Source of the DNA: a virus
Lineage: Duplodnaviria; Caudoviricetes
Strand: one strand, 5' to 3'
Virus record (IMG/VR): IMGVR_UViG_3300029305_002366
Span: 47,318 to 111,317 of that record
Length of the DNA: 64,000 nucleotides
Under the pieces are notes generated by a model. The model saw only the letters and a list, made by a program, of their open reading frames with translations. It searched no databases and had not been told where the DNA came from. The first letter of the stretch is position 1, and every line of letters starts with the position of its first letter. Positions 5,502 to 42,485 of this stretch are shown here, one piece after another. A program made the translations under genes and the position numbers.

Positions 5502-8138
5502 TCAAACATTTTCGGTGCGTGACATACTTCTTTGTTTACGTTTTCTTAATGTTGCTAATATTGTTTTTTGTTTCTTCTGACATTCTTCACATCTGCATTT
5601 ACCGTTTACTCTCTTTATCTCAGCACCACAATCAATACAAGTGTAGCCGTATTTAGTTTTGTTGGCTACAATGTTTTCATAAACAATATCACCATATATC
5701 GTAAAGAAGAACTCTTTATATCTAATGTCCTTAAACACCGTATGTTCCTTAAACATATCCTTGACAAGCATATCACATATTTCGTATTGAGCATAATCAA
5801 ATTTCTGCATTTCTGAAATAATATCATTAATAACTATTGCATTGGTTTCTTCTTCTTTATGTTTCTTTAATTTAGCAGTTGATACCATGTCACTATATGT
5901 TCTAAGTACATTCTCGTCTACTTCTATGTTAGGATTGTTCATAAGCATACGATAATCAAATCTTTTTTTATCTTCAAACGAAAGTTTAAATTCATTTTCT
6001 GGATATAGTGTAAAGATTCTATTTACAATACAATCATTAAGAGATTCTACCTGTGTTTCTTTCTTGTCCTTTGCGTAAGTAAAGAAAGCAGGTAATTTCT
6101 TATTGACATACTTTGATATTGTTTCCTTAATTTGCTTTGGCGGTGTACTCTTATATAAAGTCTTGGCAAAGTCAATTACTTCGTTATTTACCATACAAAG
6201 ATATTTCAAACAGTCAATGGCTTCTTGTCTTGTCTCAGGTGTTCTGATTTCCTGACTGTTTTTTATCTTACTGATATTATTTGACACTACTCCAATATTG
6301 CCACCTGTAAAGGCAGTTGATAGTCCTCTGTATCTGCTTTCGCTTGTAACCTGTTCTTTTGCCGCCTTACGCATATTATAGTACAAGGGAACAACACCCA
6401 TTTGATTTCTTTTTGCAACGCTAATAATATTATCATCCTGTAATATCAACGTCTTGTCTCCGTCTACATCGAATTGGAGAACCTTACTAATAACATCATG
6501 TGTACTTGTATAGCAAGCATTAGTTGTAAACCATTTCTGAATTTTAGAATTAACAACATTATTCCTTATAGCGTGTTCAAAATATAAATGAGGGCTTCTT
6601 AAACAATCAACTTCCTTATTAAATTCATGAAGATTACAATATACATCACCGTTTGCAAGCAAACCATTTGGTATTTGATTACCCTCAAATAACCATTCAC
6701 AAAAAGCATATAGGTCTGGCAAAAGGAAAGTGTAATATCCATTGACTCTAAACTTAGCCGAATATAAATCTTTGATAAGTTTCTTTCTGGAATCACGCAG
6801 TTTCTCTCTAAAAAAGTTATCCTTGATTAGTCCGTTATATTCAATAAGACATTTCTGCATACCATTGTACTTGTTATAAGATTTACCATCCCTAATACCA
6901 AACTGTTCAAGCTGAACTTGTTTATCAGTGCAAATGCCATTAATTAAACTCACGCTGTCAGCGCACATCTTCTTTAATTCAGAATCCTTATAATCAATAA
7001 AACTCTGAATCATCTGATAATTGATACTTGCTTTCTTGTAATAGTTTTCTTCAACATTACATTTACCTGCATGGCAATTATATTTTTTAAACCTATTCTT
7101 ATAATCTTCCCAACTGTCATAATAGGCATACATTTTAAGCTGAGATTTAGTAAGAATGATTTGAATATTATCTTCAATAATATCCCATTCCTTGCCCCAA
7201 ATATCTTTTACTATGGACGAACACTTGTTTTCAATAATAAATCTTTTGAAGTCAAATACCCCAAGTAATCCTTTGACCCACGGCATCCTGACCATAAAGT
7301 TTTTACTACTCAGTTCTGGACTTATCATTCCGCATCCATCGGTATGAGGAATTGGCACAGGCATAGTTTGACGAGTAATACTATAATCTCTATCGTCAAC
7401 ATAATCAACCTCAGTGATAACATTAGTTTCAAAATCATCAACAACAATACAACGGTCAATATCAAAGTCAGTCCATTCCTCTGTTGCTGAATTACAAAGA
7501 GCAAGATACGCATTGTATTTATTAAGATTCATACCACCCTTTTGATTAACTTCTTCGATTGAAAGACCGCATGATAGTCTATTCCAATTTAGGTTAAGCA
7601 AATCTTCTCTAACGAAAACAGCCTTCTTTGTTCGTATCTGACCTGCACTACTTGCAAAATACACATACTTATTTCCATTATAACCGAATCCACTATGAAT
7701 CATATTTTCAAGAACTTCAAAATAAAATACCGATATTACCATAATCTGCTCATTGACAGTTGTGTTTTCAACTGTCTGTCTTACATTAAGGTTTAAAGGT
7801 ATCATACCAAAACAACGAGTTAGTTCACTGTCGAATATAGATATTCTATTGCGAGGATTTAACTTTAAAGGATTAATGTATCTATAACGATTCATATTCC
7901 CTCTCATCATTGACAAGAGAATTTCTTTTAAAGTTGAAAGTTGTCTTGATACTTCCTTGTATTTTTTTTCCAAAACAAATCTTACGGCATCACAAATATT
8001 TTTATCTTCAAGCAATGTTTTATATTGATTCTTCTGTTCTCTTATTTTATACATTTTCTGCTCTACGTTTCTTTCATCGTCAAAGTAAAATGCAGAGGTA
8101 TCTATACCATAAATACAATACTGTTTATCTAATGCCAT
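5502..8138 (-). CDS. yonO: YonO-like single-subunit (two-barrel, RdRP-related) DNA-dependent RNA polymerase
   Basis: 878 aa; HTDGCG, LRSPH and catalytic DxDGD (QFDVDGDK); SPbeta-like context. Confidence 0.9.
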   Translation of the reverse strand: MALDKQYCIYGIDTSAFYFDDERNVEQKMYKIREQKNQYKTLLEDKNICDAVRFVLEKKYKEVSRQLSTLKEILLSMMRGNMNRYRYINPLKLNPRNRISIFDSELTRCFGMIPLNLNVRQTVENTTVNEQIMVISVFYFEVLENMIHSGFGYNGNKYVYFASSAGQIRTKKAVFVREDLLNLNWNRLSCGLSIEEVNQKGGMNLNKYNAYLALCNSATEEWTDFDIDRCIVVDDFETNVITEVDYVDDRDYSITRQTMPVPIPHTDGCGMISPELSSKNFMVRMPWVKGLLGVFDFKRFIIENKCSSIVKDIWGKEWDIIEDNIQIILTKSQLKMYAYYDSWEDYKNRFKKYNCHAGKCNVEENYYKKASINYQMIQSFIDYKDSELKKMCADSVSLINGICTDKQVQLEQFGIRDGKSYNKYNGMQKCLIEYNGLIKDNFFREKLRDSRKKLIKDLYSAKFRVNGYYTFLLPDLYAFCEWLFEGNQIPNGLLANGDVYCNLHEFNKEVDCLRSPHLYFEHAIRNNVVNSKIQKWFTTNACYTSTHDVISKVLQFDVDGDKTLILQDDNIISVAKRNQMGVVPLYYNMRKAAKEQVTSESRYRGLSTAFTGGNIGVVSNNISKIKNSQEIRTPETRQEAIDCLKYLCMVNNEVIDFAKTLYKSTPPKQIKETISKYVNKKLPAFFTYAKDKKETQVESLNDCIVNRIFTLYPENEFKLSFEDKKRFDYRMLMNNPNIEVDENVLRTYSDMVSTAKLKKHKEEETNAIVINDIISEMQKFDYAQYEICDMLVKDMFKEHTVFKDIRYKEFFFTIYGDIVYENIVANKTKYGYTCIDCGAEIKRVNGKCRCEECQKKQKTILATLRKRKQRSMSRTENV

Positions 8139-20512: not shown

Positions 20513-20830
20513 ATGACAAATGCAACTAAGGTAATTTTATTCTGTGGCTTATTCGACAAGGATTCAAAGGCTCAGGAAGTGTCAACTCTTGACGCTTACA
20601 AGGTGGCTTCAAACCTGCTTACCGAAATTATCGGTTTCGGCACTATTACCGAAGCCTGCGGAGTGTATACTCACGAAAATGGTGAGATTGTACAAGAGCC
20701 TACACTCAGAATCGAAGTGTCAAGCATTGACATTGAGAGCATGAAAAGACTGGCTCTCGCCTTAAAGCAAGCCTTCAACCAAGAGTCAATCGGATTCGAG
20801 GTTATAAAAAGCGACTTCTCATTCATCTAA
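20513..20830 (+). CDS. hypothetical early protein
   Basis: GGAGG RBS before ATG 20513. Confidence 0.7.
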   Translation: MTNATKVILFCGLFDKDSKAQEVSTLDAYKVASNLLTEIIGFGTITEACGVYTHENGEIVQEPTLRIEVSSIDIESMKRLALALKQAFNQESIGFEVIKSDFSFI

Positions 20831-29486: not shown

Positions 29487-30506
29487 ATGACAAGAGCAGC
29501 TTTAAACTGGAACATCAATCAGGTGGTAAAGGGTATTACAAACGGAACAATTAGTTCTGACAATGCAATTCAGAGAGGTTTTGTATGGGACAAAAAGAGA
29601 GGTTCACTTCTCATTGATTCCGTACTCAGGGATATGCCTATTCCTGCAATCTACACAATCAAGACTAATGAGACAATCAAGGTCAAGAACAAGGAAGTTT
29701 CCGTGTATGACCTTATTGACGGAAAGCAGAGAACAACTACATTCGCAAGATTCTTAAACAACGAGTTTGCACTGGAAGGACTTGAACCATTCATCACTGA
29801 CGATGAGGAAGTTGATATCAATGGACTTACATTTGACGAACTTTCTGAGGAAATGCAGGACACTATAAAGTCATATGGACTTACAGTTTACTACTTCTCA
29901 GATATCACAGATGAGGAAATCGCTGATATGATGAGCAGACTTAATAACGGTAAGCCACTGACAGGTACGGAAAACGCTCGTATCAAGGCAAAACAGCTTG
30001 ATACTATTAAGGGAATAGCATCACATAAACTGCTTATGGATAATCTTTCTGCAACTGCCCTCAGAGGGTATGCAAATGAAGATATCATTATTAAGCTTGC
30101 ACTTCTCCTTAATGACCAGAGCGAACTTTCTTCAAAGAATGTACGTCAGGCATATGAGACATTCACATTTGGAGAAAACACAGTTAATGAAATCAATTCA
30201 ATTCTTGACTTCACATACCTTGCAATCGAAGCGGCTACAGATGATAAGAAGATTATCAAGCGTATCACTTCAAAGGCAAATCTCATAACTGTTCTGTATG
30301 TAGCAAAGCAGTTCATGGATGAAAGCGAAGAAGAATACGAAGATAAAATATCAATCTACGGAGATAAGCTGTCACAGTTCTTTGATGGAACAGATGGTGC
30401 TACAGTAAGTGCGGATTATAATGAAGCCTGCACTAACGGAACTATGAGAGCATCAAATGTAATCACAAGAAATGATGAACTTTACAAGTTCGTTATGGAA
30501 GGTTAA
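29487..30506 (+). CDS. DUF262 (ParB/Srx-like, GmrSD N-terminal type) domain protein
   Basis: QRGFVW, LIDGKQRTTT, RLNNGKPL motifs. Confidence 0.85.
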   Translation: MTRAALNWNINQVVKGITNGTISSDNAIQRGFVWDKKRGSLLIDSVLRDMPIPAIYTIKTNETIKVKNKEVSVYDLIDGKQRTTTFARFLNNEFALEGLEPFITDDEEVDINGLTFDELSEEMQDTIKSYGLTVYYFSDITDEEIADMMSRLNNGKPLTGTENARIKAKQLDTIKGIASHKLLMDNLSATALRGYANEDIIIKLALLLNDQSELSSKNVRQAYETFTFGENTVNEINSILDFTYLAIEAATDDKKIIKRITSKANLITVLYVAKQFMDESEEEYEDKISIYGDKLSQFFDGTDGATVSADYNEACTNGTMRASNVITRNDELYKFVMEG

Positions 30507-38812: not shown

Positions 38813-39163
38813 ATGAGTTTAATAAGTAGAGGAAGTATTTATATGGCAAGACTACCCATCCTTGACGAACACAGTTCCGTACAAGGTGGACTCAGACCAG
38901 TATTAATTATTCAGAATGATATTGGTAATGCACACGCACCAACGGTACAGGTAATACCATTGACTTCAAAGAATAAAAAAACATTACCAATACATACGAC
39001 CATCAAAAGCGGAGGACTTCTTAAAGAATCCACAGCTTTAGCAGAACAAATACAAACGGTCAACAAAACGATACTTCGCCAGTATATAGGTAAGGTAGAC
39101 GATGAGACTATGAATAGAGTTAATGCTTGTATTATGATTCAGCTTGGTCTTATTAAAAATTAA
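38813..39163 (+). CDS. mazF: PemK/MazF family endoribonuclease toxin
   Basis: RGSIYMA...SVQGGLRPVLIIQNDIGN..PTVQVIPLTS...LAEQIQTV. Confidence 0.9.
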   Translation: MSLISRGSIYMARLPILDEHSSVQGGLRPVLIIQNDIGNAHAPTVQVIPLTSKNKKTLPIHTTIKSGGLLKESTALAEQIQTVNKTILRQYIGKVDDETMNRVNACIMIQLGLIKN

Positions 39164-39598: not shown

Positions 39599-40648
39599 AT
39601 GGTATATTTAATAGATGAATATTATAAGCAACATCCAGAACGTGAGAATTTAATCAGACCTGTTTTTGATAAGTTTATAAGCGCAGAAAAGTATCTGCAC
39701 GAAATGTCATTAGATGAACTTAATGAGATAGTAAAAGATTGGGTACAAAAACCTAACACTATCGAAGCAAGAAGGGGAGCATTATCTTTATATCTTTATT
39801 GGCTTAAAGAGCAAGGAATAAATGCAAACCCTGACATAGCAAAGGGGATAGTTTTTTCTGAAAGAGAAAATCAATTTTTAATATACTCTACCGATGATAT
39901 TCATAGTATATGGAAAGACTTTGTTAGAGATATTGACATTACTGCTGAGAAGAAAGGAAAGGTATCAAGCACAGAACCTTTACTTGTATGTTATGTAGCA
40001 GGTATACTTGGATTCTATGGCATGACTAAACAACAGATTATGTCATTACAGCTTAGTGATGTTCAGAATGATGGTATTGTAGGGTATGATTTACCTTTGA
40101 CTTCAAAAGACAAAGAGGTATTACTTAAATATAAAGACCTTGATACACTTGCAAACAGACAGCCATTATTAGGAACAGGATATATTCGTTCATCAAGAAC
40201 AGAACATCCAAACGAACTTATATTAGATAAGGCACTTGGCAAGGTAGATTGTTCGCAAGAATCAAAACCACTCATGAGCCTGTTGACTTATTCAAGTTTG
40301 TATAAACTTGGACTTATGGGGAGAGTTTACGAATATGAAAAGACCCATAGACCAACTGTCGATAATGGCTTTACTATCCCCGACTGGTTTAAGGATATGA
40401 TAAATGAAAGCATGGGTAAAGTGGTAACATTAAGAACGATATCACAGTACAAACAGAACTACATTGCGTACCGTACAGAAAGAAACGCATATAAGAATGT
40501 GTTGAATAACAAGGTAAAGTACGCAAATTCTCAGAATGTAAATGATATTATTGTCAAACTTGATTCTATTATCAATTCTATCTCAGATGTAAAAATTCAA
40601 AATGAATTAAAGAATGTTCAGAATCAGATAAGAGAATTAGTTAAATGA
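39599..40648 (+). CDS. degenerate tyrosine-recombinase-fold protein, candidate YopR/MrpR-like repressor
   Basis: LGFYGMTKQQIMSLQLSDV resembles integrase box I without the catalytic Arg; own promoter at 39537-39565. Confidence 0.5.
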   Translation: MVYLIDEYYKQHPERENLIRPVFDKFISAEKYLHEMSLDELNEIVKDWVQKPNTIEARRGALSLYLYWLKEQGINANPDIAKGIVFSERENQFLIYSTDDIHSIWKDFVRDIDITAEKKGKVSSTEPLLVCYVAGILGFYGMTKQQIMSLQLSDVQNDGIVGYDLPLTSKDKEVLLKYKDLDTLANRQPLLGTGYIRSSRTEHPNELILDKALGKVDCSQESKPLMSLLTYSSLYKLGLMGRVYEYEKTHRPTVDNGFTIPDWFKDMINESMGKVVTLRTISQYKQNYIAYRTERNAYKNVLNNKVKYANSQNVNDIIVKLDSIINSISDVKIQNELKNVQNQIRELVK

Positions 40649-40669
40649 AAAAAATATATAATTTACCCC

Positions 40670-40698
40670 TTGACAAATAAGAAATAGTGTGCTATAAT
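40670..40698 (+). promoter_or_regulatory. sigmaA promoter of the tRNA/ncRNA cluster
   Basis: TTGACA-17-TATAAT followed by leader hairpin and operator-like motif. Confidence 0.85.
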
Positions 40699-40769
40699 AA
40701 TATACAGAGAGAGGGAAATAAAAAACCTAATCTCTGTATATTAAATAGTACAAAGAGTAAAATGTATAA

Positions 40770-40845
40770 TGTGGATTCGCCAAGCGGTGAAGGCACAGGA
40801 CTTTGACTCCTGCATACGTGAGTTCAAATCTCACATCCACAACCA
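40770..40845 (+). tRNA. tRNA-Gln(TTG)
   Basis: acceptor TGTGGAT/ATCCACA, anticodon arm CAGGA-CTTTGAC-TCCTG, T-loop GTTCAAATC, CCA. Confidence 0.92.
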
Positions 40846-41125
40846 ATGGGACAATTATGTGTTAAGAGAACCGTGTCTACTTCATCTCTCCAATAAATAA
40901 GAAGATGTGAAAGATTTACTTTCAAAAAAGGTAACGGTGTAGATAGACCTTCTTGCCAAAGGCTATTGAAATTCGGAATGGTAATTGACTATACTTGTCA
41001 GTGGAGTGGTCAATGATGTGATTCGCTGAAATGCGGATAGGATAGTGAACTGTAGGAACTGCGGATATGTGATAGATGGAGTTCGCAAGTGCTGTTTGGT
41101 TGGTGGTTTTGAACAGCATATTACT

Positions 41126-41199
41126 GGGAATATAGTTTAATGGTAAAACAAGTCCCTTTTAAGGATTAGTTGAGAGTTCGATTCTCTCTGTTCCCACCA
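41126..41199 (+). tRNA. tRNA-Lys(TTT)
   Basis: acceptor GGGAATA/TGTTCCC, AGTCC-CTTTTAA-GGATT, GTTCGATTC, CCA. Confidence 0.88.
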
Positions 41200-41339
41200 A
41201 TTAGATTGGGTACACAATAGCAGTCAAGCTGTTAGGGACAGTTGTGTAGTCCCCTCCAATCTAACACCAATAACCAGATGCATTTGTAACACCTCCTTTC
41301 TGCCTTGCGGTAGGGGCTAATCTACCGCATAATACATAT

Positions 41340-41454
41340 GACAGTATAGTTCAATGGTAGAACAGGTTTAAATTCTATCTTGTATAAGATAGTAACAGCA
41401 ATTATTCTGCGTACCAAGCACCTGACATGAGTTCGATTCTCATTACTGTCACTA
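41340..41454 (+). ncRNA. tRNA-like RNA with enlarged anticodon domain
   Basis: acceptor GACAGTA/TACTGTC, D-arm GTTC-AATGGTA-GAAC, T-arm ATGAG-TTCGATT-CTCAT, about 50 nt in place of the anticodon loop. Confidence 0.7.
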
Positions 41455-41458
41455 TTAT

Positions 41459-41647
41459 ATGAGAGCCTTGTCAGTTATAGGTAAGCCTGTCGATGAGGAA
41501 GATAGGTGAAATAAACTATGGGTCATTAAACTCAAAATGGCTTCTGTATTATGGTGAACGTAATGCGGAAAGATTGCGTTCCTGATTCTTGCAAGTCGAT
41601 ACAGTTTAAACATAGTTTCGGTGGTGCAACTCCACCCTCTCATACCA
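41459..41647 (+). ncRNA. long tRNA-like RNA (acceptor stem + T-arm + CCA enclosing about 155 nt)
   Basis: ATGAGAG/CTCTCAT-A-CCA; GGTGG-TGCAACT-CCACC T-arm-like hairpin. Confidence 0.6.
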
Positions 41648-41778
41648 ATATCTTCACTTATTATGCTTGTCATAGTAAGACACCTCCTAAGATGCCCTGA
41701 TTGTCAGGGCAAGCAATCTTCACACGTTCTGACATAACGTGTTCCTCCATATAGCCCTACTTGGTAGGGCATACATAA

Positions 41779-41861
41779 GTCCTCTTGATGGAATTGGTAG
41801 ACATGGCTGATTCAAAATCAGTTGCGAAAGCGTATGAGTTCGACTCTCATAGAGGACACCA
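41779..41861 (+). tRNA. tRNA-Leu(CAA)
   Basis: GTCCTCT/AGAGGAC, GCTGA-TTCAAAA-TCAGT, variable arm, CCA. Confidence 0.92.
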
Positions 41862-42035
41862 ATAGGAATATCGCTTTTCCTTTAAGAAAGATGGGATGAC
41901 ACCAACGTTGCAACATTTTTGGTGTGTAAATCGTTCCCTACTTTAAGCGGTGGTGTTAATGGATTCCAAGAGCAATATCCATATCGTATACGCAAGATAT
42001 TGGGGACTTGACTTGTAAAAAGAAGTCTCATTAAT

Positions 42036-42125
42036 GGGGCAATGGCGAAGTTGGATGAAACGCATTGGTCTTAAAAACCAATACCCATGTGGTAAACACC
42101 GAGGGTTCGATTCCCTCTTGCCCCA
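42036..42125 (+). tRNA. tRNA-Leu(TAA)
   Basis: GGGGCAA/TTGCCCC, TTGGT-CTTAAAA-ACCAA, long variable arm, GGTTCGATTCC; no encoded CCA. Confidence 0.85.
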
Positions 42126-42485
42126 CTTTATTTTTTTATATCAAAACAAGGAGTGAATTGTAAATGAGTAGATTCTACAAATTGAATAGTCGTGACGAGT
42201 TTATTTCTTTTGTGGAAAAAATGAGAGATAATTTTGATTGTCCCGAAGATTGGGAGCAGTTCTTTGGGATTAGATTAAAAACCGATGAAGAAGGAAATGA
42301 ACTTGAAACTCTTAGAGAGTATGCACAAGAACATAATATTGATAGTGAGCCGTGGAGTTATGAATATCCAGTTATTCTTTATTGCAATATAGCTTATGAC
42401 CGTGATAGGTTTGGGAGATGCGGTATAAGGATTCTCGAAATGGAATCTTTAAATAATTTATAATTTTATAAGGAGGAAATAAGAA

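Follow-up and report, generated by a model that had tools for sequence, protein, structure and literature searches.

CCUCC-bearing spacer units of a phage tRNA array and their possible generic pairing with Shine-Dalgarno sites

Three short units, each reading CAT, 8 or 9 nt, CCTCC and then a hairpin, lie among the tRNA genes of a tailed gut phage (Caudoviricetes), and we conclude that they are real and not a product of chance. They were found in a stretch of 64,000 nt, here called the window, which forms the final 64 kb of a 111,317-bp virus record (IMGVR_UViG_3300029305_002366) with a completeness rating of 100%. Judging from sequence comparisons and predicted folds, we tentatively read the units as spacer RNAs from a transcript punctuated by tRNAs; their exposed CCUCC would pair generically with Shine-Dalgarno (SD) sites and not with those of chosen genes, a proposal to which we give somewhat less than an even chance.

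The units and the array that holds them

All three units were found where the first-pass annotation had placed them, with each CAT, spacer, CCTCC and hairpin confirmed (Table 1). The opening shared by units 2 and 3, ATCTTCAC, was also confirmed, the copy in unit 3 starting 3 nt inside the start claimed for that unit. A second hairpin (hairpin A), absent from the earlier annotation, holds the CAT in units 2 and 3, and in the predicted fold the CCUCC of both units is unpaired between hairpin A and the hairpin already described (hairpin B). In unit 1, CACCUCCUUUCU (12 nt) was likened by eye to what we take to be the consensus 3' tail of 16S rRNA.

Table 1. Features of the tRNA array (window positions)
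Feature	Position	Strand	Description
Sigma-70-type promoter of the tRNA operon	40670-40698	+	TTGACA-17-TATAAT with TG, 12/12 matches
tRNA-Gln(UUG)	40770-40845	+	tRNA search and Rfam
tRNA-Lys(UUU)	41126-41199	+	tRNA search and Rfam
Minihelix	41203-41270	+	Paired ends, then CA-CCA; contains the fourth CCTCC of the array (41253)
Unit 1	41271-41338	+	CAU-N8-CACCUCCUUUCU (CAT 41281-41283, 8 nt, CCTCC 41292-41296), then hairpin 41306-41329 (TGCGGTAGG 41306-41314 / TCTACCGCA 41321-41329); next tRNA 10 nt on
tRNA whose anticodon arm is enlarged by about 41 nt	41340-41451	+	Rfam 49.3 bits; missed by ARAGORN
tRNA-like RNA, 190 nt	41459-41647	+	Paired ends, T-arm-like hairpin, A-CCA 3' end; fold z -3.0
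Unit 2, family A	41650-41715	+	AUCUUCAC (ATCTTCAC 41650-41657); hairpin A 41657-41679 (41657-41665/41671-41679); CAT 41671-41673, 9 nt, CCTCC 41683-41687; unpaired ACACCUCCUAAGA; hairpin B 41693-41711 (TGCCCTGA 41693-41700 / TCAGGGCA 41704-41711); R1 E 1.3e-16
Unit 3, family A	41716-41778	+	AUCUUCAC (ATCTTCAC 41716-41723); hairpin A 41722-41742 (41722-41728/41736-41742); CAT 41733-41735, 8 nt, CCTCC 41744-41748; unpaired UCCUCCAUAUA; hairpin B 41754-41770 (GCCCTAC 41754-41760 / GTAGGGC 41764-41770); tRNA-Leu(CAA) 8 nt on
tRNA-Leu(CAA)	41779-41861	+	tRNA search and Rfam
tRNA-Leu(UAA)	42036-42126	+	tRNA search and Rfam; last gene of the operon, then T run

On the plus strand, CAT-N5-10-CCTCC occurs 12 times in the entire 111,317-bp genome; nine of these sites lie in the region of minus-strand genes and are thus ordinary gene starts read backwards, and the other three are the units. 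The 43,001-nt block of plus-strand genes contains seven CCTCC (4.0-4.8 expected), four of which fall within the 1,481-nt array, at 41253-41748 and hence in less than 500 nt, where 0.5-0.8 would be expected. No GGAGG is present in the array. The units share their strand with all five tRNAs, and a consensus promoter lies upstream; since their folding energies are similar on the plus and minus strands, the assignment of strand rests on this context and on a few wobble pairs.

Between about 21000 and 63400, all open reading frames (ORFs) of at least 150 aa are on the plus strand; at the 3' end of the window, two ORFs on opposite strands overlap. The promoter marks the beginning of a 1.5-kb non-coding stretch that is mostly spacer and not tRNA, and promoters of like kind precede the arrays of the related phage G001 and of the related loci L127 and L178. 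Four of the five tRNAs were detected by ARAGORN and the fifth by Rfam only. This fifth tRNA has 52 nt where the Rfam model has 11, and the insert could be an intron, a decoy or part of a non-standard tRNA. Similar tRNAs with an oversized anticodon loop stand right after tRNA-Lys in G001 (L008:1937-2025) and L127. In the 190-nt element, a T-arm-like hairpin (GGUGG-UGCAACU-CCACC) lies beside an acceptor-like 3' strand; it matches no Rfam family, and its predicted fold resembles that of a tRNA-like domain into which 150 nt have been inserted. Every tRNA or tRNA-like 3' end of the window's array reads CCA-AT. The minihelix, too, has a counterpart directly after tRNA-Lys in a relative (L128:3717-3790), likewise with paired ends followed by N-CCA.

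An Rfam search over 40600-42200 returned tRNA as the only family at E < 0.001, with nothing relevant in 41271-41772. The units contain no terminator-like site, and on neither strand does a T run come after any of their hairpins; within the array, only weak promoter matches were seen on the plus strand. The array itself was found, at half or more of the sampled words, in 15 public runs from feces, bovine gut, gut, anaerobic digester and activated sludge.

Family A in related phages and natural variants

The closest cultured relatives by DnaE are phages of Bacillota (30-35% identity), and a search for cultured relatives gave tRNA matches and nothing more. Six records are related by DnaE at 57-84% identity and 80 more at 55-68%. 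In the phage studied here (G000) and in G001, the array lies between orthologous genes, the flanking proteins being just 37-47% identical. The relatives' arrays (L104-L123, L127, L178) carry the same small tRNA set of Gln-UUG, Lys-UUU, Leu-UAA and Leu-CAA, often with Pro-UGG. In some of them, ORFs, e.g., an HNH-like one, are inserted between the tRNAs.

Units 2 and 3 belong to a family (family A) that reads (CCA)AAUCYNC, hairpin A and (U)GA-CCUCC-N3-6, followed by a GCCC-stem, a triloop and a stem-GGGCA that together form hairpin B. The triloop is UUG in five of seven distinct units, and CUG and ACG in the remaining two. Other members are G001u (L008:2774-2834), L127u, L128u (also in G051), L178a and L178b. 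One copy lies 4-8 nt 5' of tRNA-Leu(CAA) in G000, G001, L127 and L178, and one copy stands at the end of the array in L128 and L178. The pattern CCTCC-N3-6-GCCC-N7-13-GGGC was present in G000 (twice), G001, G049, G050 and G051 among 50 related records, with one non-hairpin match in G022; the reversed pattern, used as a control over the same 50 records, gave no matches. The covariance model R1 (37 records) gave eight matches at E <= 3e-6, in G000, G001, G049, G050, G051 and G054, those inside fetched arrays being all on the tRNA strand. The family as defined is based on six records, two of them nearly identical. Weak R1 matches had no hairpin B, and two or three of them, aligned by eye, resembled antisense copies of gene starts.

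Beyond family A, the phage G002 carries a looser unit (CAU-N10-CCUCC, then a hairpin) after a tRNA-Asn/Glu array, and CAT-N5-10-CCTCC was found on the tRNA strand in none of 20 arrays of more distant relatives. A pattern scan of viral sequences gave 102 stretches; 80 were folded, and among the top 30 by hairpin energy, which were inspected, only L218, L159, L175 and L178 were real units. In a scan by flanking proteins, one search came back empty and the metagenome scan gave no more than two loci, of which a single one was new.

The CCUCC does not vary among the eight family-A matches, with a predicted unpaired probability of 0.72-1.00. Hairpin B is paired in 100% of cells, and three of its seven pairs are changed on both sides; its covariation score of 0.386 (shuffles, 0.141 +/- 0.037; reached by 0 of 500) comes from an alignment that was fitted to the model and has no more than six rows, all of them related and two almost the same. 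Hairpin A varies in sequence and is kept as a hairpin; between unit 3 and L178b, a single A to G change keeps a U-G pair on the plus strand only. In the comparison of orthologous clusters that the first-pass annotation had called for, its supposed antisense segment is hairpin A, kept by compensatory or wobble changes. A conserved and single-stranded seed between stems that vary, as predicted here, is what characterizes trans-acting anti-SD or C-rich small RNAs (sRNAs). CAU stands at the SD-AUG distance in units 2 and 3, G001u/L127u and L178b and is missing in two of the six distinct family-A units, L128u and L178a. Unit 1 has its own homologues (L128:3800-3866, L178:7560-7626 and, in G001, L008:1795-1860), which keep UCCUUUCUG or UUCUUUUUCUG together with a UGCGG hairpin. 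All three are without CCUCC and without CAU at the SD-AUG spacing, so the perfect start-site mimic of unit 1 is peculiar to this phage.

Spacer RNAs of the array behave as movable cassettes and are modular in natural variants. The four sequencing runs in which these were examined consist of unstranded contigs, and material from RNA libraries may be DNA. One variant is without 41406-41649 (joint 41405>41650) and hence without the 190-nt tRNA-like RNA. Other variants carry a 14-nt insertion within the 41459-41647 element, in a 72-aa minus-strand frame, or a 1-nt insertion in a 21-aa frame. For a diverged copy of units 2 and 3, the listed changes are three substitutions (41680, 41691 and 41714) and two insertions (behind 41710 and 41741), all of which lie in linkers or where stems end; the contig has five more differences that the list does not include.

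The spacer 41862-42029 is precisely missing in variants of two DNA runs (joint 41861>42030); it is kept in L127 and L178, before tRNA-Tyr or tRNA-Leu-UAA. A 250-nt RNA-library contig, 40857-41102, covers just the 280-nt spacer between tRNA-Gln and tRNA-Lys (40846-41125); being unstranded, it is no proof of a discrete RNA. An 887-nt contig, 41141-42004, ends in adapter and, like the stretches of the runs that are without cover, shows neither transcription, strand nor ends.

Generic pairing, specific targets and competing readings

In the generic scheme that we propose, host RNA polymerase would start at the promoter and make one long precursor, in which tRNAs and tRNA-like, CCA-ended elements would punctuate folded spacer RNAs. 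RNase P cleavage at the next tRNA, together with trimming at the preceding CCA, would then yield a unit RNA of 60-70 nt whose 3' end may be capped by hairpin B; release of this kind is plausible because the units lie between a CCA end and the 5' end of the next tRNA. The CCUCC, often extended to ACCUCCU(U), would be single-stranded in the linker between the two hairpins and could pair with the SD of many messages, damping translation initiation broadly, with the CAU of some copies adding a start-codon contact. The messages affected may be those of the host, the phage's own early ones, or both.

On their sense strand, array spacers have more anti-SD-like pentamers than expected, both in the close clade (26 vs 4.9 +/- 2.4, a count that includes related sequences) and in 20 arrays of distant relatives (14 vs 6.4 +/- 2.8, a number reached by 4 of 300 shuffles). 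SD-like pentamers showed no enrichment in array spacers. Exact complementary runs of at least 7 nt were found at 33 of the phage's 53 GGAGG...ATG sites for unit 1, at 10 for unit 2 and at five for unit 3; such counts prove nothing, since any CCUCC pairs with any SD by definition. A generic anti-SD RNA would also strike the phage's own GGAGG starts, and the CCUCC could instead be a site for a protein or a nuclease.

Phage tRNA clusters are usually read as aids to codon usage or as a means of restoring tRNAs that host defence destroys. More broadly, and with greater doubt than for the units themselves, phage tRNA operons might be tRNA-punctuated sRNA operons, with a mimic of the anti-SD tail, competing with the 30S subunit for SD sites, as a recurrent cargo. 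If this were true, RNA made in bulk from a consensus early promoter could switch off translation in the host or silence early genes of the phage itself. It would be an RNA counterpart of phage T4 RegB, a protein that shuts off early messages by cutting GGAG in the SD. Should the modules indeed attach to ribosome-binding sites, the processing of tRNAs would at the same time deliver translation-control RNAs, and an entire class of phage "spacers" would need gene annotation. Our search of the literature on phage tRNA clusters, spacers, small RNAs and anti-SD motifs found no paper describing such elements in phage tRNA operons.

The first-pass annotation had gone further and pictured a programmable array, each unit being an antisense RNA that occludes the SD and AUG of one host or phage message; we now regard this as very improbable. 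An SD-AUG-like spacing (6-10 nt) does occur antisense of units 1-3, G001u/L127u, L178b and the unit of G002. The best single case is ACCUCCUAAGAU of unit 2, which is exactly complementary to 12 nt in the start region of a 349-aa gene at 39599; the same unit matches the start at 29487 over 8 + 13 nt around a 4-nt gap. Such matches are, however, no better than those that starts show to each other, as for 81-91% of real starts another start matches as well or better (start-versus-start null). The search of the rest of the phage that the annotation had asked for gave no start that matches the units beyond this background, and its remark that the window holds no matching gene start can be extended to the entire phage genome. 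When scored without gaps against the phage's own starts, the reverse complements of the units reached 18-19 at best, against a null median of 20 (G001, 18 vs 21). Gapped alignment with 275, 342, 270, 80 and 103 SD-led starts of five genomes gave tied best scores of 12-15, and the top genes were non-orthologous across G000, G001, G050, G054 and G049; the GGAGGTCA starts, to which the unit of G001 would be suited, do not include that of the G001 orthologue of the gene at 39599. The supposed guide, from the CAU to the 5' end of the unit, is not free either but self-paired, locked in hairpin A. The units that are without CAU, together with the unit 1 homologues, also argue against a programmable array. 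Among phage starts, we found no complementarity that extends beyond SD and AUG and is kept across relatives. Energies of unit-target duplexes were discarded because they ignore self-structure.

Two further ideas about the units and starts were dropped. Family A might have originated from the start of the conserved gene MTNAQKIILFLGLFDK (window position 20513 in G000), but this start was not ranked first in any of the five genomes. Starts with AGGAGGTCA number four in G001, two in G054, one each in G049 and G050 and none in G000, and they fit the UGACCUCCU units of G001, G054, G049 and G050; they are too few to establish co-variation between units and starts. In G000, GGAGGTG occurs only antisense to units 1 and 2, and its absence elsewhere is not striking, given that a T follows GGAGG in only 10 of 53 starts.

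The main rival to generic SD pairing, which we consider possible if doubtful, is that the units are purely cis-acting modules of the precursor and that their likeness to an anti-SD is incidental. Their hairpins would insulate the tRNAs as they fold, give RNase P its distance and shield cut ends from exonucleases, and the single-stranded pyrimidine tract before hairpin B would be a protein site or an entry point for an endonuclease such as RNase Y, whose cleavage sites are said to lie immediately 5' of a stem-loop. Leader hairpins are indeed general in these arrays. In the close clade 14 of 20 tRNAs, and in distant relatives 29 of 53, have a stable hairpin 2-12 nt in front of them, compared to 137 of 1000 random positions (13.7%). 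Hairpin B may thus be the local form of a general leader hairpin, and a role in processing would explain it without any action in trans. A cis role also accords with the unit 1 homologues, which keep pyrimidine tract and hairpin without CCUCC, and with the gain and loss of modules as blocks at the joints 41405>41650 and 41861>42030. It accounts less well for a CCUCC that stays invariant while the flanking stems vary and for the enrichment of anti-SD-like words in spacers even of distant relatives, which suggest that processing is not the entire story; moreover, we know of no tRNA-processing enzyme that needs CCUCC. There is also little to recommend the reading of the units as starts of minus-strand micro-ORFs (19, 72 and 21 aa), unlikely in spite of a strong SD, good spacing, an ATG, a few weak R1 matches that look like antisense copies of true gene starts, and an ATGA overlap by which the stop of the 21-aa frame and the start of the 72-aa frame would be coupled. 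The peptides of homologous units are unrelated (MSERVK..., MPKT-stop, MSNVSG...) and do not exist in L128u and L178a, so that neither frame nor peptide is conserved at homologous loci as would be expected of a small protein or type I toxin. The variants described above have insertions in the 72- and 21-aa frames or have lost 41406-41649. Furthermore, neither peptide matches Pfam, no minus-strand promoter of at least 9/12 was found downstream of 41772, and the neighbouring genes are all on the plus strand.

Equally remote, in our estimate, is the idea that the units are decoys or substrates of a MazF-type RNase that cuts the 16S anti-SD tail, either the phage's own PemK/MazF-like protein (38813-39163) or an abortive-infection toxin of the host. 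The PemK/MazF-like gene lies 2 kb upstream of the units, and CUCCU is present in eight of the nine CCUCC-bearing units compared, unit 3 being the exception. Removal of the 16S anti-SD by a Mycobacterium MazF has been reported (PMC12274833). The decoy reading is countered by G001, which has a unit and no toxin homologue at E < 1e-5, and by the position of the toxin gene: together with a TnpB gene it occupies, in G000, an interval whose flanking genes have homologues about 100 nt apart in G001.

Known RNAs compared and genes nearby

Non-tRNA products of tRNA transcripts have precedents. In Escherichia coli, 3'ETS-leuZ is a regulatory RNA that is cut from a tRNA precursor and acts in trans after processing; unlike the units, it is not of phage origin, lacks an anti-SD motif and acts, together with Hfq, as a sponge of specific sRNAs. 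The tRNA cluster of phage T4 makes stable RNAs that are not tRNAs, "species 1 and 2" (rnaC and rnaD), for which we know of no assigned function or anti-SD motif.

Two groups of bacterial sRNAs resemble the units more closely in their presumed action. The alpha-r14 or "cuckoo" sRNAs of Alphaproteobacteria (NfeR1, CcsR1-4) are described as carrying an identical anti-SD motif in unpaired regions with stems of differing sequence, and are predicted to pair with many ribosome-binding sites (PMC10746234). The units share with them the repeated hairpin modules, the identical unpaired anti-SD and the variable stems. The alpha-r14 motif is CCUCCUCCC, placed in the loops of three hairpins of a stand-alone bacterial sRNA gene, whereas the units have CCUCC (at most CACCUCCUUUCU) in a linker and lie in a phage tRNA operon without a terminator of their own; they show no such loop motif and no match to an Rfam covariance model. 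RsaE/RoxS are reported to have unpaired C-rich motifs that bind SD sequences and block initiation (PMC6158497). These and other C-rich-motif sRNAs of Bacillota resemble the units in their unpaired C-rich tracts and probably in host range, the latter because the nearest cultured DnaE relatives (30-35% identity) infect Bacillota. RsaE, on the other hand, is encoded by the host and has a promoter and a terminator to itself, neither of which was found in the units, and the two are related neither in sequence nor by Rfam. By motif placement and for want of an Rfam match, the units are members of neither group.

Some genes around the array merit mention. The segment 37410-39163 contains the genes for TnpB (OrfB_IS605 plus a Cas12f1-like TNB domain) and the PemK/MazF-like toxin, with no obvious antitoxin upstream. 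A 128-aa ORF overlaps the toxin gene downstream; by eye, its positional counterpart in G001 shares an N-terminal LLGxILD, and tblastn against G001 gave no match for it at E < 1e-5. On the minus strand, at 5502-8138, an 878-aa protein matches Pfam RdRP (PF05183, 9e-15) and is a candidate YonO-like single-subunit RNA polymerase, so that part of the phage may use promoters other than those of the sigma-70 type.
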